Of a DNA stretch of 64,000 nt, positions 7,233 to 61,757 are shown in pieces. The position numbers and the translations under genes were made by a program. This DNA comes from Escherichia coli (GTDB lineage: Bacteria; Pseudomonadota; Gammaproteobacteria; Enterobacterales; Enterobacteriaceae), in NCBI RefSeq assembly GCF_022846255.1, contig NZ_AP025682.1. One strand, 5' to 3'. Each line of letters starts with the position of its first letter. Positions within the stretch are counted from its first letter, which is position 1. The notes under the pieces are model-generated. The model had not been told where the DNA came from and ran no database searches. It saw only the letters and a list, made by a program, of their open reading frames with translations.

Positions 7233-8044
7233 GGTTTCCCTTGTAATAATTGTTGGCCAAGCCAGAACCCCAGCAGCGTATCGGCCCCTGACGTATGCCC
7301 CAGCGCCAGCAGCGAATCGATCGCCGCTGCGGTACGTTTCGGGCAACTCAGAGCATGAACAAAGTGCAGGAGTGGCGAGGCGAAATATCCTTGCGCGGCA
7401 TAACGTAAATAACTGACGCTCACCGCAGTGGTAACGAGTTGAAGATTGTCGGAACAGGCAAAAAACGGGCGACCGGAGCGCGCATCTAAAGCACCATAAT
7501 ACCAGGCCGCCAGCAGCATTCCGCTCAGCGTGTCATCATGACTTGGCGTTAATCCGGGGCCTTTACCCAGCCAGTGCCGCCAGTCGGTCTTAACGCCATT
7601 GAGCGCGGCCTGAAAACAGTGACGAAACTGGCGTAATTCAGCAGGCAGCGGATCGCTTGCCGCCAATGCCAGTGGCCCGAAAAGCCCGGTTTCCTCCGCG
7701 CGTTGCATCCATGCAACGGCAAGCGGTTGAGGATGCGCAGGCGGCGTAATACGTAGCAAACAATAACGCTGTGGCTGTTTAACCGTGAAACGCCCGAGAC
7801 GAATCCCTTGTGCCACAACCTGTGGTCGTTCATTGCCGCATAATCCACCGCATAACGCATCGAATTGCGCGCGGCGAAGCACCCATCCGCCGGGGCCGAA
7901 ACCACTCCCCTGACGATGCAGCGTTAACAGTTCGCCGCTTTCCGTCATCAGGTTAATCGCCCGCCGCCACACTCCCGCTAACCGCCAGGACTGGCGATAA
8001 TTCGGTGCGCTACGGCTGGCAAGTAGAGGATGGATGATCGTCAT
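7229..8044 (-). CDS. ylbF: YlbF, DUF2877 protein of the fdrA-ylbE-ylbF-ybcF operon
   Basis: [20 protein letters not shown]..., 271 aa; ATG at 8042-8044; stop overlaps the ybcF start. Confidence 0.85.
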
Positions 8045-34854: not shown

Positions 34855-35772
34855 ATGCTTATCTTTATCCCTATTCTCATTTTTGTCGCGCTGGTCATTG
34901 TTGGCGCGGGCGTCAAAATCGTGCCGCAGGGCTATCAGTGGACAGTAGAGCGTTTTGGTCGCTATACCAAAACGTTACAGCCAGGTCTAAGCCTGGTGGT
35001 GCCCTTTATGGATCGCATTGGTCGCAAGATCAATATGATGGAGCAAGTGCTCGACATCCCTTCCCAGGAAGTTATCTCGAAAGATAACGCCAACGTTACC
35101 ATCGACGCCGTGTGCTTTATTCAGGTGATTGATGCCCCGCGCGCCGCCTATGAAGTCAGCAATCTGGAGCTGGCGATCATCAACCTGACCATGACTAACA
35201 TCCGTACCGTGTTGGGTTCAATGGAACTTGACGAAATGCTCTCTCAGCGCGACAGCATCAACTCACGCCTGCTGCGTATTGTCGATGAAGCCACTAACCC
35301 GTGGGGGATTAAAGTCACCCGTATTGAAATTCGCGACGTGCGCCCACCGGCAGAGCTTATCTCTTCAATGAACGCGCAGATGAAAGCGGAACGTACCAAA
35401 CGCGCTTACATCCTTGAAGCGGAAGGGATCCGTCAGGCGGAAATCCTCAAAGCCGAAGGTGAAAAACAGTCGCAAATCCTGAAAGCGGAAGGTGAACGTC
35501 AGTCGGCATTCTTACAGGCCGAAGCGCGTGAACGTTCTGCCGAAGCGGAAGCCCGCGCCACCAAAATGGTGTCTGAAGCCATTGCCTCCGGCGATATTCA
35601 GGCGGTGAACTACTTCGTAGCACAGAAATACACCGAAGCGTTACAGCAGATCGGTTCCTCCAGTAACAGCAAAGTAGTGATGATGCCATTAGAGGCCAGC
35701 AGCCTGATGGGGTCGATTGCCGGGATTGCCGAGCTGGTGAAAGACAGCGCCAACAAACGGACTCAGCCATGA
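34855..35772 (+). CDS. qmcA: SPFH/stomatin-family protease QmcA
   Basis: 305 aa with N-terminal TM segment and band-7 domain. Confidence 0.93.
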
Positions 35773-36227
35773 TGGAGTTAATGGTCGTTCATCCACATAT
35801 TTTCTGGCTCAGTCTCGGCGGGTTGCTGCTGGCAGCCGAGATGCTGGGCGGAAATGGTTATTTGTTGTGGAGCGGCGTGGCAGCGGTGATTACCGGTCTG
35901 GTGGTCTGGCTGGTGCCGCTGGGTTGGGAGTGGCAAGGGGTGATGTTTGCCATTCTGACACTGCTCGCCGCCTGGTTGTGGTGGAAATGGCTGTCGCGGC
36001 GGGTGCGCGAACAAAAGCACAGCGATAGTCATTTAAACCAGCGCGGGCAGCAGCTGATTGGCCGACGTTTTGTGCTGGAATCTCCGCTGGTCAACGGGCG
36101 CGGTCATATGCGCGTCGGTGACAGTTCATGGCCTGTCAGCGCCAGCGAGGATCTCGGTGCAGGTACGCATGTTGAAGTCATTGCGATAGAAGGGATAACG
36201 CTGATCATCCGTGCGGTCATCGCCTGA
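35769..36227 (+). CDS. ybbJ: NfeD-like membrane protein YbbJ
   Basis: 152 aa; start overlaps the qmcA stop (coupled SPFH/NfeD pair). Confidence 0.9.
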
Positions 36228-36312
36228 TGCGACGCTGACGCGTCTTATCATGCCTACAAAATATGCCCGAATCGTAGGCCAGATAAGGCGCTTGCGCCGC
36301 ATCCGGCATATA
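36222..36312. repeat. REP element pair
   Basis: gcctgatgcgacgctgacgcgtcttatcatgcctac ... gtaggccagataaggcgcttgcgccgcatccggc. Confidence 0.75.
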
Positions 36313-36329
36313 GCCGAGTAGAGGCAAAA

Positions 36330-36692
36330 TTACTCTTCCCGGCCTTTACCCATACTTTTTTGGTCTTCATCCGGATAGTGTTTTTTTAGATATTCCAGGA
36401 CGTTTTTATTGACCTTGTGTTGGGTATACACCCACCCTTTCCAGTAATCAGGTTGGTCCAGGTAAACTTCTGGCGGAATGGTGAAATCAGAAAGCGTTAA
36501 CCATTCGGCTAACAGATCGGGGTTTCGTTTCTGGATCAACTGCAACAGCATGATCAGCGACATGGCAGAGGCAGGAGCCGTACTATCGCCGCTTAAATAC
36601 TTCCACACTGTCGACCGGTTCGAACGAAAAAGGATCGGTAGCAATGCCCGGTCCAGATTCATTTCATTAAAAATCTTCTCAAATTCATTCAT
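36330..36692 (-). CDS. Hypothetical 120-aa protein, possible Cro/C1-like HTH; not recognised as a K-12 gene
   Basis: Clean ORF with caggaaa RBS 7 nt upstream of the ATG; the segment RSTVWKYLSGDSTAPASAMSLIMLLQL resembles an XRE-type recognition helix; divergent from the adhesin gene. Confidence 0.55.
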   Translation of the reverse strand: MNEFEKIFNEMNLDRALLPILFRSNRSTVWKYLSGDSTAPASAMSLIMLLQLIQKRNPDLLAEWLTLSDFTIPPEVYLDQPDYWKGWVYTQHKVNKNVLEYLKKHYPDEDQKSMGKGREE

Positions 36693-37057
36693 TTAAATTT
36701 CCTGCCTGGCGTAAACCTCTTAAAAATTGAGATTTATCAAAGAAACGCATTTTAGCACACATCAGGAACCGCTTCACGTTTAGTCCAGAAACAGAATTTA
36801 TTTCGCTTATCAAAACAAGTCTTTACTCTTTTTTACATTGAAAGAGCACGAAATAATTTCCTTTTTTATTTATATAAGAAACTATTTTTGTTTCTTATTG
36901 GTGGTGTTTACGCTTACACAATACAAAAATGCGCTTTACATCACACAAATGGCGGCGTAGATTTCGATCAAATTGCAACGCAGTTTATTTCTTAAAACAA
37001 TATTATTTGTTTCTTATAGAAACATTAATGCGACTTATTTTGAACAAGAGAAAATGA

Positions 37058-38074
37058 ATGAAAACTGTAAACGTAGCTTTACTGGCACTCATAATTTCAG
37101 CAACATCCAGCCCTGTTGTTTTAGCTGGTGATACCATTGAAGCGGCGGCAACAGAGCTTTCAGCCATTAACTCCGGCATGTCGCAATCGGAGATTGAGCA
37201 GAAGATTACCCGCTTTTTAGAACGCACAGACAACAGCCCCGCTGCGTATACCTATTTGACTGAACATCACTACATCCCTTCTGAAACACCTGATACCACT
37301 CAGACTCCCACTGTCCAGACAGATCCTGACGCAGGACAAAAAACCGTTGCCGCTACAGGTGATGTACAGACAACCGCCCGTTATCAGAGCATGATCAACG
37401 CCCGACAGTCTGCGGTAACTGACGCCCAGCAAACGCAAATTACAGAGCAACAGGCGCAGATCGTAGCCACACAAAAAACGCTCGCCGCGACTGGAGATAC
37501 GCAAAATACCGCGCATTATCAGGAGATGATTAATGCCAGGCTGGCGGCTCAAAATGAGGCTAATCAGCGCACTACCACGGAACAAGGGCAGAAAATGAAT
37601 GCACTGACAACCGATGTGGCAGCACAACAGCAAAAAGAAAGGGCTCAATACGATAAACAAATGCAAAGTCTGGCGCAGAAGTCTGTCCAGGCACATGAAC
37701 AAATTGACAGCCTGTCACAAGACGTAACCCAAACGCATCAGCAGTTAAGCAACACGCAAAAACGAGTAGCGGATAATAGCCAACAGATTACTACGCTCAA
37801 TAACCATTTCAGTTCGCTGAAAAACGAAGTTGAGGACAACCGTAAAGAAGCCAATGCGGGAACTGCATCAGCCATCGCTATCGCCTCACAACCACAGGTG
37901 AAAACCGGTGACGTGATGATGGTGTCAGCGGGAGCGGGAACGTTCAACGGTGAATCTGCGGTGTCTGTAGGAACATCTTTTAATGCCGGAACGCATACGG
38001 TACTTAAAGCAGGTATTTCTGCGGATACACAATCTGATTTCGGTGCGGGTGTCGGCGTGGGATATTCGTTCTAA
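37058..38074 (+). CDS. Short head-less trimeric autotransporter adhesin (type Vc, YadA-like C-terminal anchor)
   Basis: Signal peptide MKTVNVALLALIISATSSPVVLA|GD; Q/T-rich coiled-coil stalk with a 45-aa tandem repeat; C-terminus ...SAVSVGTSFNAGTHTVLKAGISADTQSDFGAGVGVGYSF fits the 4-strand YadA anchor ending in an aromatic residue. Confidence 0.75.
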   Translation: MKTVNVALLALIISATSSPVVLAGDTIEAAATELSAINSGMSQSEIEQKITRFLERTDNSPAAYTYLTEHHYIPSETPDTTQTPTVQTDPDAGQKTVAATGDVQTTARYQSMINARQSAVTDAQQTQITEQQAQIVATQKTLAATGDTQNTAHYQEMINARLAAQNEANQRTTTEQGQKMNALTTDVAAQQQKERAQYDKQMQSLAQKSVQAHEQIDSLSQDVTQTHQQLSNTQKRVADNSQQITTLNNHFSSLKNEVEDNRKEANAGTASAIAIASQPQVKTGDVMMVSAGAGTFNGESAVSVGTSFNAGTHTVLKAGISADTQSDFGAGVGVGYSF

Positions 38075-38127
38075 TTTTAACAGCAATTTCTTATTCGCAA
38101 TTTTCCGCACATTATTTAAGGTTAACA

Positions 38128-38550
38128 ATGATGAATAGCTCCATTAAATCGTTTTCCCTGCTGGCGGTTATATTACTGGCTGGCTGTAGCTCACCCGCTT
38201 CCCGCATCGCAGATTGCCAGGCGCAGGGCGTCAGTCATGACACCTGTTACCTCGCAGAACAGCAGCGTCAGTCGGCTATTTTAAGTGCATCCGAAGCGCA
38301 GGCATTTAAAAATGCAGATGCCGCACAACATGCCCAGGCGGCAAAGAAAGCCATTTATAAAGGATTTGGCATGACCTTTAGAATGAGCAGTAAAAACTTT
38401 GCTTATCTCAATGATTCATTATGTGCAATTGATGAAGACAATAAAGATGCCACTGTTTATCAGTCAGGTCTGTATAACGTCATTGTTTATCACCATACGG
38501 GAAAAGTCGCCTTAATGAAGGAAGGTCAGTTTGTGGGTTATTTAAAATGA
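38128..38550 (+). CDS. Hypothetical lipoprotein (lipobox LLAGC, +2 Ser)
   Basis: MMNSSIKSFSLLAVILLAG|C signal/lipobox; aagg RBS; lies 53 nt downstream of the adhesin gene on the same strand. Confidence 0.65.
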   Translation: MMNSSIKSFSLLAVILLAGCSSPASRIADCQAQGVSHDTCYLAEQQRQSAILSASEAQAFKNADAAQHAQAAKKAIYKGFGMTFRMSSKNFAYLNDSLCAIDEDNKDATVYQSGLYNVIVYHHTGKVALMKEGQFVGYLK

Positions 38551-38750
38551 AGGAGCAAAGGAAAATCCCCCTGACGCATATTATGATTATCGGTGCGTTT
38601 ATTTTTGCCTTCTTGCAAGTGGTGTTATTAGCCTCCCTGGTTCACGCTGTGAATGTTAACAACGAAATCCAGGAAGGCTTATTTCAGTCGGGGCGCATTA
38701 TGGTAGAAAGTTTGCAGCATATTCTTTCGGTGCAAACGGAGATTAACTGA
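38547..38750 (+). CDS. Hypothetical 67-aa single-pass membrane protein
   Basis: Start overlaps the lipoprotein stop (ATGA); one hydrophobic helix IMIIGAFIFAFLQVVLLASLV; stop lies 3 nt from the cueR stop. Confidence 0.5.
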   Translation: MKEQRKIPLTHIMIIGAFIFAFLQVVLLASLVHAVNVNNEIQEGLFQSGRIMVESLQHILSVQTEIN

Positions 38751-38753
38751 TTT

Positions 38754-39161
38754 TCACCCCGCCCGATGATGACAGCAGCCGGAGAGATTTTCGATAATCG
38801 GGCAGTCGGCGCTGTCATCGCCAGGGCAGGCATTCGCCAGCGCCAGTAGCTGGTTGCGCATGGATTGCAGTTCTTCGATATGCCGTTCGATCTCCGCCAC
38901 CTTCTCCAGCGTACGACGTTTGACGTCGGCACTATGACGCTGCGGATCGTTAAACAGATTCACCAGTTCGCCGCTCTCCTCCAGGTTAAAGCCCACCTGG
39001 CGTGCCTGGCGCAGTAAGGTCAGTTCGTTGAGATGCTGCTGCGTGTAGGTGCGATAACCGTTTTCGCTGCGCATCGGCGGCGTCACCAGCCCCTTCTCTT
39101 CATAGAAGCGAATGGCTTTGCTGGTCAGGCCGGTAATTTTTGCTACATCGCTAATGTTCAT
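38754..39161 (-). CDS. cueR: MerR-family Cu(I)-responsive regulator CueR
   Basis: 135 aa with N-terminal MerR HTH and C-terminal metal-binding Cys residues. Confidence 0.95.
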
Positions 39162-61379: not shown

Positions 61380-61757
61380 TCAGTGCTTTTCTTGCTTTTC
61401 ATCAATCACCGGAATTCGCCACATATAGAAAAGCAAACAGGCGAGAATTACCAGCAACATGATGCGCACCCATGGCATCTGGACGAACCACAGAGAAATG
61501 GCAAACGTGAGCAAAATAAGCAAAATCGCCCGCGGTTTGACGCCGCGCGGCATCGCATGATGTTTCTGCCAGAAACGTAGATAGCTGCCAAACCATGAGC
61601 GGTACAGCAACCAGGCATGAAAGCGCGGGGAAGAACGGGCAAAGCACCAGGCCGCCAGCAGGATAAACGGCGTCGTCGGTAATACCGGTAATACCACGCC
61701 CAGCGTACCCAGCACTACCGCCAGCCAGCCAATGATGATTAAAATGATTCGTTGCAT
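61380..61757 (-). CDS. ybaN: Inner membrane protein YbaN (DUF454)
   Basis: 125 aa hydrophobic ORF divergent from priC. Confidence 0.88.

Follow-up and report, generated by a model that had tools for sequence, protein, structure and literature searches.

In the gal operon the two GalR operators lie at -60.5 (OE) and +53.5 (OI), and similar dual-operator loops are known from lac, ara and deo. The trimeric autotransporters UpaG and EhaG of Escherichia coli are repressed by H-NS. Here we describe a 365-bp spacer of the E. coli chromosome, which separates the divergent genes of a 120-amino-acid (aa) protein, Z0640, and a 338-aa adhesin, Z0639, and compare it with these systems, with the small repressors of the XRE/Cro type and with the OmpR sites of ompF and ompC. 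The spacer occupies positions 36693-37057 of a stretch of 64,000 nucleotides (contig NZ_AP025682.1 of assembly GCF_022846255.1), which is called the window in the following and to which all positions refer. It contains a set of GTTTC/GAAAC half-sites, and according to sequence comparison and fold prediction these are probably, if by no means surely, the operators of the divergently encoded Z0640, a putative helix-turn-helix (HTH) protein resembling the XRE type.

The two genes are part of a four-gene island inserted between ybbJ (35769-36227) and cueR (38754-39161). By its sequence the island is O-island 29 (OI-29) of enterohaemorrhagic E. coli (EHEC) O157:H7 EDL933 with the genes z0638, z0639 and z0640, which is absent from K-12 and was studied by Yang et al. 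2018 (PMC5826968). The z0640 deletion primer given there is the reverse complement of window positions 36694-36730, and the deletion primer for z0639, named gmrA in that paper, ends with GAACAAGAGAAAATGA followed by ATG, which corresponds to 37019-37060. Due to these primer positions z0640 could be matched to the open reading frame (ORF) of 120 aa on the minus strand (36330-36692), the proposed local regulator, and z0639 (ECs0548, 'gmrA') to the 338-aa ORF on the plus strand (37058-38074).

The initial annotation described the spacer as extremely AT-rich, which is reflected by a G+C content of 30.7% in comparison to 52.6% for the whole window. The two dyads with a common half-site, which it reported for this region, could also be located. 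Dyad 1 (36874-36898) has the sequence ATAAGAAAC-TATTTTT-GTTTCTTAT, with perfect 9-bp arms and a spacer of 7 nt. Dyad 2 (37008-37024) reads (T)GTTTCT-TAT-AGAAAC(A) and has arms of 6-7 bp around 3 nt. The centres of the two dyads are 130 bp apart, and the two copies of GTTTCTTAT are separated by 119 bp. Altogether the hexamer AGAAAC/GTTTCT is found six times within the 365 bp, at 36741, 36787, 36877, 36890, 37009 and 37018. In dinucleotide-preserving shuffles of the spacer a single perfect 9-bp inverted repeat is unremarkable (P = 0.05), but two separate dyads with a common hexamer (P = 0.004) and six occurrences of one hexamer (P = 0.007) are rare. The proposal of paired operators was only partly retained: the dyads are very likely operators, but they are not two copies of one dyad, as their half-sites differ in orientation and spacing (GAAAC-N7-GTTTC in dyad 1, GTTTC-N5-GAAAC in dyad 2).

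A consensus scan of the spacer revealed a single promoter-like site, the predicted sigma-70 promoter of the adhesin operon (TTTACA-17-TAGATT, plus strand, 36935-36963) with a predicted start near 36970. This block is invariant in six E. coli alleles and nearly so across genera (GCTTTACATCACA...GGCGTAnATT). Relative to the predicted start dyad 1 is centred at about -84 and dyad 2 at about +46 (+39 to +53), which places dyad 2 within the predicted leader, 35 bp upstream of the adhesin ATG. For z0640 a predicted extended -10 element, TGcTAAAAT (36757-36749, minus strand), was read from the sequence; it is absent from the output of the consensus scan, and TGnTAnnAT is present at the aligned place in most other genera. 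The predicted z0640 start falls within the GTTTC at 36746-42. This pentamer belongs to a further candidate site over that start, ATTTA-TCAAA-GAAAC (36732-36746), which combines the strong half-site AAGAAAC (36740-46) with a weak partner. Its GAAAC is invariant in the six E. coli alleles and conserved in ten of 11 aligned spacers from several genera. A third dyad, GTTTA-GTCCA-GAAAC (36778-36792), adjoins the -35 region of z0640, and its CAGAAAC is conserved across genera. Neither of these two sites was named in the initial annotation. The spacer has at least six half-sites, two of them at the promoter of the putative regulator itself.

Comparison of the six E. coli alleles indicates that the motif is conserved within the species. 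In the variable parts of the spacer only two of 20 motif positions vary, in comparison to 59 of 127 other positions (Fisher P = 0.0026). The arms of dyad 1 are kept and its inner spacer varies. The right arm of dyad 2 shows no change in E. coli and hardly any across all genera; the left arm is changed from GTTTC to GTTGC in three of the six alleles.

This last change bears on the question whether the dyads act in RNA, as a leader hairpin, an attenuator, a terminator or a small RNA, since it is accompanied by no compensatory change in the right arm. Dyad 2, being situated in the predicted 5' leader, could form a 7-bp hairpin, and dyad 1 has a fold of -7.9 kcal/mol (z = -3.8). However, the predicted promoter is located downstream of dyad 1, the fold of the entire leader is no more stable than that of shuffled sequences (z = -0.13), and neither a match to Rfam nor a terminator-like site was found in the spacer. 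Furthermore, both orientations of the motif are found, and it is present at the promoter of the other gene as well. An intrinsic terminator or a structured RNA leader was rejected on the basis of the leader score and of the negative terminator and Rfam searches, and we regard a role of the dyads in RNA as very improbable.

For the search across genera nine non-redundant spacers were used, which originate from Escherichia, Pseudocitrobacter, Symbiopectobacterium and metagenomic relatives with protein identities down to about 45%. The most over-represented hexamer in these spacers is AGAAAC (36 observed, 2.3 expected, z about 17), and the pentamer GAAAC is found 50 times where 8.6 occurrences are expected. 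In a position weight matrix of the 50 GAAAC sites, position -1 is an A in 36 cases and TTTC appears at -9 to -6, where the C of -6 is present in 28 cases. The most frequent unit is the 15-bp palindrome GTTTC-N5-GAAAC, i.e. the type of dyad 2, and the core of dyad 2, GTTTC-TTATA-GAAAC at 37009-37023, is a perfect copy of this family-wide consensus. Single strong half-sites of the form (T/A)AGAAAC with weak partners occur as well. With one mismatch allowed, eight spacers of the nine contain at least one dyad of the type (G/A/C)TTTC-N5-GAAA(C/T); in L024 a related dyad, GTTGC-N5-GCGAC, is all that was found.

The arrangement of dyad 1 was found elsewhere only in Symbiopectobacterium (L010), where the GTTTC of the corresponding pair doubles as the left arm of an ordinary N5 dyad. 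Dyad 1 of E. coli is best read as two strong half-sites standing back to back, each of which has a degenerate partner. If it is read as two 15-bp sites, their centres are 22 bp apart. Steps of 22 bp are also seen between GAAAC sites downstream of the promoter in other loci (L012 279/301/323, L016 286/308/330, L014 295/317, L022 347/369). Of this downstream array E. coli has kept only the last site (37019) intact.

The enrichment also bears on the possibility that the spacer has no dedicated operator. The region would then be acquired AT-rich DNA under H-NS, perhaps bent by IHF or Fis, and the recurrent words would be the result of composition and common ancestry. This would fit the 31% G+C of the spacer in a window of 53%, the presence of the island in only 26% of the complete E. 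coli genomes, and the differing insertion points across genera. On the other hand, dinucleotide-preserving shuffles fail to yield the hexamer enrichment, a pentamer containing G and C is kept while its AT-rich neighbours drift, and the motif switches together with the clade of the regulator, as described below. Composition and ancestry as the whole explanation appear unlikely to us. Nevertheless, DNA coated by H-NS may contain specific operators as well. Of the features taken to mark H-NS-silenced promoters, AT-richness in comparison to the genome and an accessory locus were both found, and because of the AT-richness and the patchy distribution of the island an involvement of H-NS is plausible from the sequence. 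The literature searched yielded no H-NS data for OI-29.

Z0640 belongs to a tiny orphan family, for which 21 clusters were found in a collection of 5.8 billion proteins and 23 representatives when 1.8 billion proteins were searched exhaustively with a profile. Relatives, scanned singly, match HTH models of Pfam (HTH part of MqsA 2.4e-5, Xre-like-HTH 3.7e-5, HTH_3 2.5e-4, HTH_26 2.9e-4), and a profile search of the PDB by sequence gave E-values of about 1 only. With a broad alignment AlphaFold2 (AF2) produced an all-helical model with a mean local confidence (pLDDT) of 90.5 and a global score (pTM) of 0.79; with close homologues only the pLDDT was 59. In this model the HTH is formed by the predicted helices 15-22 and 26-34. 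The putative recognition helix comprises residues 26-34 (RSTVWKYLS), of which R26 is invariant. The top Foldseek matches of the model in the PDB are nearly all HTH proteins of the XRE type, namely HigA2, P2 C, Aca2, controller proteins, lambda cI and MqsA. The best of them, HigA2, covers the N-terminal 65 residues with 2.4 A over 63 columns (probability 0.99, E = 0.28). Z0640 is accordingly described here as an uncharacterised protein with a predicted XRE-type HTH fold and no curated family model. A toxin-antitoxin module was considered and rejected: no toxin gene is linked to z0640, which is flanked by REP elements and ybbJ and, in the opposite direction, by the adhesin operon, and its partner in other genera is again the adhesin gene.

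The pairing with an adhesin gene is a constant property of the closer relatives examined. Homologues with 61-83% identity from Pseudocitrobacter, Symbiopectobacterium and metagenomic Enterobacterales are each encoded divergently from a gene with a YadA anchor or of similar size, with spacers of 356-379 bp, and the same divergent pairing is seen for homologues at about 45% identity. Within the clade of Z0640 (clade A) a divergent gene with a YadA anchor or of the size of a trimeric autotransporter was found at every locus examined, and in the sister clade (clade B) at most loci. Ten clade-A loci have spacers of 356-408 bp; the spacer of L024 is shorter (about 300 bp), and those of clade B measure 264-277 bp. 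The GAAAC motif recurs in every clade-A spacer examined. Two distant homologues, P0037 and P0039, are located in mobile-element contexts without an adhesin gene and were left out of the motif work.

Clade B, which consists of P0031 and its relatives, allows the rival explanations to be distinguished. Part of this clade occupies the same cueR-ybbJ-qmcA neighbourhood. Among its adhesin partners that of L036 has a YadA anchor; those of L035 and L039 are likewise long and rich in repeats, and the DNA examined ends before their C-termini. The recognition helix of clade B is QRSTLNKW instead of NRST[VI][WH]KY in the Z0640 clade, and its spacers contain the half-site GT(A/C)GC...GCTAC in place of GTTTC...GAAAC. 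The 5-N5-5 geometry and the two positions are kept, as one dyad is situated close to the HTH gene and the other 25-50 bp before the adhesin ATG. Examples are GTAGC-TGTTA-GCTAC in L039/L040, GTCGC-TAATC-GCTAC and GTCGC-TAATA-GCTAC in L036, GTCGC-TATTC-GCTAC in L035, and GGAGC-TACTA-GCTAC and GTAGC-TAATA-GCTTC in L034. In 1167 bp of clade-B spacer GCTAC is found 15 times and GAAAC four times; in 3260 bp of clade A GAAAC is found 50 times and GCTAC not at all. The half-site thus switches together with the recognition helix of the adjacent regulator, which is predicted for a local regulator and not for a universal factor. The adjacent 120-aa protein is a credible binder of the dyads in view of the HTH prediction, the adhesin pairing, the recurrent motif and this co-variation.

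One lineage of clade B (L028:2004-3342, L034) has no adhesin gene, and its HTH gene faces a lipoprotein gene. The spacer is 350 bp long there and still carries dyads of the GTAGC type.

The co-variation is also of importance for the main rival explanation, in which a conserved global response regulator recognises the GAAAC sites. The most plausible candidate is OmpR; at the TTTAC-N5-TTTAC repeat described below it could be CpxR. The adhesin would then be tied to osmolarity or envelope stress, and Z0640 would be irrelevant or act elsewhere. The similarity to OmpR sites is real. The sites of K-12 ompF and ompC (TTTTCTTTTTGAAACCAAAT and TTTACATTTTGAAACATCTA among others) show the pattern TTT(A/T)C-N5-GAAAC(A/C), and with a crude matrix of six OmpR sites six of the 17 best matches of the 64-kb window fall into the 365-bp spacer. 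The 22-bp steps of the downstream GAAAC sites in several genera are near the 20-21 bp of ompC and ompF. In addition, lower levels of z0639 mRNA were reported for high concentrations of NaCl or KCl and for pH values other than 7 (PMC5826968). However, the matrix scores in the spacer are 9-10.7 bits, in comparison to 12.9 for the weakest canonical site, and are inflated by the AT-rich composition. The base before GAAAC is an A in 36 of 50 sites and a T in the GAAAC sites of ompF and ompC. OmpR uses tandem half-sites, whereas palindromes, both orientations and sites downstream of the start are found here. A universal regulator also fails to explain why clade B, in part at the same chromosomal neighbourhood, has lost GAAAC and gained GTAGC-N5-GCTAC along with a changed helix. 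OmpR stays the main rival as binder, sub-canonical in its fit and contradicted by the clade switch, and we consider this explanation rather unlikely.

Further candidate elements of the spacer were inspected. The direct repeat TTTAC-N5-TTTACA (36822-36837), which on the minus strand reads GTAAA-N5-GTAAA, differs from the GAAAC motif. Its position is conserved across most genera, and GTAAA is the third most enriched pentamer across the spacers. It resembles a site of the CpxR/OmpR type, and its minus strand matches the CpxR consensus; the repeat might be a separate response-regulator site. Boxes for RcsAB, PhoP, CRP, Fur and IHF were rejected, as the spacings misfit by eye when compared with the consensus sequences. 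A single GATC (36966-36969) is located just downstream of the predicted adhesin -10 and is GATT in three of the six E. coli alleles. A phase switch of the Dam/OxyR type as in Ag43 was rejected, because the spacer has only this one polymorphic GATC and no cluster of them.

Two further matches to GTTTC-N5-GAAAC are found elsewhere in the window, a perfect one inside ORFs (61562-61576) and one with one mismatch (7777-7791). With four in the window and 2.05 expected, the matches outside the spacer were judged to be consistent with chance. A perfect GTTTC-CATCA-GAAAC is also present about 330 bp upstream of the ompF start codon of K-12 (L026:509-523; NC_000913.3 987308-987322); it lies outside the OmpR sites F1-F3, and K-12 has no z0640.

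From the computed features, i.e. the motif, its conservation, the co-variation between the clades, the predicted HTH fold and the conserved promoter elements, we infer the following mode of regulation. A dimer of Z0640 would bind GTTTC-N5-GAAAC, as a 15-bp palindrome suits a dimer in two successive major grooves. The sites at 36732-46 and 36778-92 flank the extended -10 promoter of z0640 and would mediate negative autoregulation. The adhesin promoter (36935-63) has the back-to-back pair on its upstream side (36874-98, about -84) and the palindrome on its downstream side (37009-23, about +46). Z0640 bound in the leader might act as a roadblock and in this way repress the adhesin-lipoprotein operon, and cooperativity or looping with the upstream sites could strengthen this effect. 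The AT-rich DNA would probably be coated by H-NS as well, and repression would persist until some signal releases Z0640. Repression is moderately favoured over activation, because the sites overlap the starts or follow them and because deletion of z0640 did not reproduce the phenotype of the z0639 deletion (PMC5826968). The latter observation implies that Z0640 is not an essential activator. A possible role of the upstream sites is that of an anti-H-NS activator.

Several points weigh against Z0640 as the binder of these sites. Contact between Z0640 and the DNA is deduced from sequence and a predicted fold. Against Pfam, Z0640 itself finds at best the HTH part of MqsA_antitoxin with 13.5 bits (E = 0.08) at a cut-off of 30, and the Foldseek E-values are weak (about 0.3) though the matches are consistent. 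Both promoters are predictions backed by conservation, and only predicted starts are given. The geometry of the sites is not rigid: N5 is the commonest spacing of the half-sites, but N7 and N1 occur too, which is unusual for a rigid dimer. Dyad 1 with its opposite orientation cannot be bound like dyad 2. The distance of 130 bp between the dyads corresponds to 12.4 helical turns and is thus non-integral, in contrast to the preference of simple looping. Sites within one clade are related by descent, so that the counts overstate the number of independent events, and for the dyads of an individual clade-B spacer the excess over chance is marginal (P = 0.04-0.06). Finally, the motif resembles the half-sites of OmpR.

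The adhesin gene itself has been described under a different function. Z0639 was called GmrA, a transcriptional activator of fliA, with a 'putative DNA-binding domain' derived from a CDD search (PMC5826968). By every sequence test it is instead a trimeric autotransporter of the YadA family. Pfam YadA_anchor matches residues 279-338 above the cut-off (1.1e-11), and the solved anchors of AtaA and Hia in the PDB match at about 1e-6. The N-terminus is hydrophobic and signal-like, ends with VLA-GD and is followed by a coiled-coil stalk. The 338-aa ORF is labelled as a YadA family adhesin in RefSeq, and the Sakai orthologue ECs0548 is listed as a 'Saa-like protein' among adhesion genes (Ogura et al. 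2007, PMC2323221). The only 'DNA-binding' resemblance in Z0639 is to TMF_DNA_bd (E = 0.15), a chance match of the coiled-coil type. The claimed DNA-binding domain is thus probably a coiled-coil artefact, and Z0639 has probably been published wrongly as a transcription factor. Z0640 is the only predicted HTH protein on the island, which suggests that it, and not 'GmrA', is the HTH protein of OI-29. In the literature searched no paper was found that names GmrA together with the term 'trimeric autotransporter'.

Strains of E. coli differ strongly in their adhesin gene, with annotated forms of 338 aa, 422 aa and 349 aa. In several strains the annotated coding sequence begins 370-740 bp downstream of the spacer (L003:2865-3601, L004:2866-3601, L005:2866-3232, L006:2866-4134). 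This suggests alleles that are frameshifted, variable in their repeats or mis-annotated.

Downstream of z0639 the island encodes the 140-aa lipoprotein of z0638 (38128-38550, plus strand) and a 67-aa membrane protein (38547-38750, plus strand). The two genes are putative partners co-transcribed with the adhesin gene, and a lipoprotein gene and a small membrane protein gene are also found 3' of the adhesin gene in several other genera. A relationship of the lipoprotein to a solved chaperone was rejected, since a sequence search for it gave no match. The spacer is present in 1413 of 5426 complete E. coli genomes (26%), O157:H7 included, with one copy per genome and 87-100% identity. A wider query matched a median of seven places per E. 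coli genome because of repeats of the repetitive extragenic palindromic (REP) type, which lie at 36202-36344 between ybbJ and the 120-aa ORF and give weak matches to naRNA4 of Rfam.

Across genera the cassette of HTH, adhesin, lipoprotein and small membrane protein genes is inserted at differing points of one neighbourhood (L007-L009, L012, L014): between ybbJ and cueR in E. coli, between qmcA and fetA in Pseudocitrobacter and beside cnoX elsewhere. No mobility genes are visible in these loci or in window positions 36228-38753. On the other side of cueR, genes for an adaptor of the HlyD family and a type I secretion ATPase are encoded on the minus strand from 39158 onwards. We take them to be the RTX-type island described for O157:H7 and enteroaggregative E. 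coli (EAEC) 042. In this strain cueR is thus flanked by two accessory islands.

Beyond the single locus, Z0640 could be the founder of a so far unrecognised XRE-like family, which is dedicated to the trimeric-autotransporter operons of Enterobacterales and whose operators co-evolve with the recognition helix. We put this forward tentatively, with slightly less than an even chance of being correct. If it is true, Z0640 and not Z0639 is the transcription factor of OI-29; Z0639 would be an adhesin of the cell surface and would affect fliA and motility, as reported for it, in an indirect way. In the literature searched no description of the operator code or of a dedicated link to trimeric autotransporters was found, and nothing on promoter or regulation of the adhesin operon beyond mRNA levels. 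The analysis provides a testable control map with two promoters, four operator positions, a named candidate regulator and a predicted recognition code, for an operon carried by about a quarter of the E. coli genomes including O157:H7 and many extraintestinal pathogenic E. coli (ExPEC) strains. The clade-specific switch of the operator is a small natural case of co-evolution between regulator and operator, which could serve for orthogonal repressor-operator pairs.

How does this locus compare to the systems named at the beginning? With the OmpR sites F1-F3 of ompF and C1-C3 of ompC it shares the TTT(A/T)C-N5-GAAAC(A/C) words and arrays at a spacing of roughly two turns. It differs from them in its lower scores, in the A before GAAAC, in the palindromic arrangement in both orientations, in the location of sites both downstream and upstream of the start, and in a half-site that changes between clades. 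The H-NS-silenced adhesin genes upaG and ehaG have in common with it an AT-rich upstream region, an accessory autotransporter gene and a patchy distribution; in contrast to them OI-29 has a dedicated, co-inherited HTH gene and a specific motif containing G and C.

As in gal with its GalR operators, groups of sites in the upstream region (about -84) and in the leader (about +46) bracket the adhesin promoter. Unlike gal, the 130 bp between them are no integral number of turns, the two sites are differently arranged, the regulator is of another family, and no sign of looping or of an architectural protein was seen.

The closest resemblance is to the small repressors of the XRE/Cro type such as HigA2, MqsA, C.Esp1396I and P2 C. 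It comprises the predicted fold of the N-terminal 65 residues of Z0640, the small size of the protein, candidate 15-bp palindromes with half-sites one helical turn apart, and several neighbouring candidate operators, of which one overlaps the promoter of z0640 itself. Different from those repressors are the additional helical C-terminal part of 55 residues, the failure to reach the threshold of any curated model and the variable spacing of the half-sites. Moreover, the partner of Z0640 is neither a toxin nor a restriction-modification system but the operon of a trimeric autotransporter. The architecture as such is that of a standard divergent promoter-operator region and not a new kind of system.

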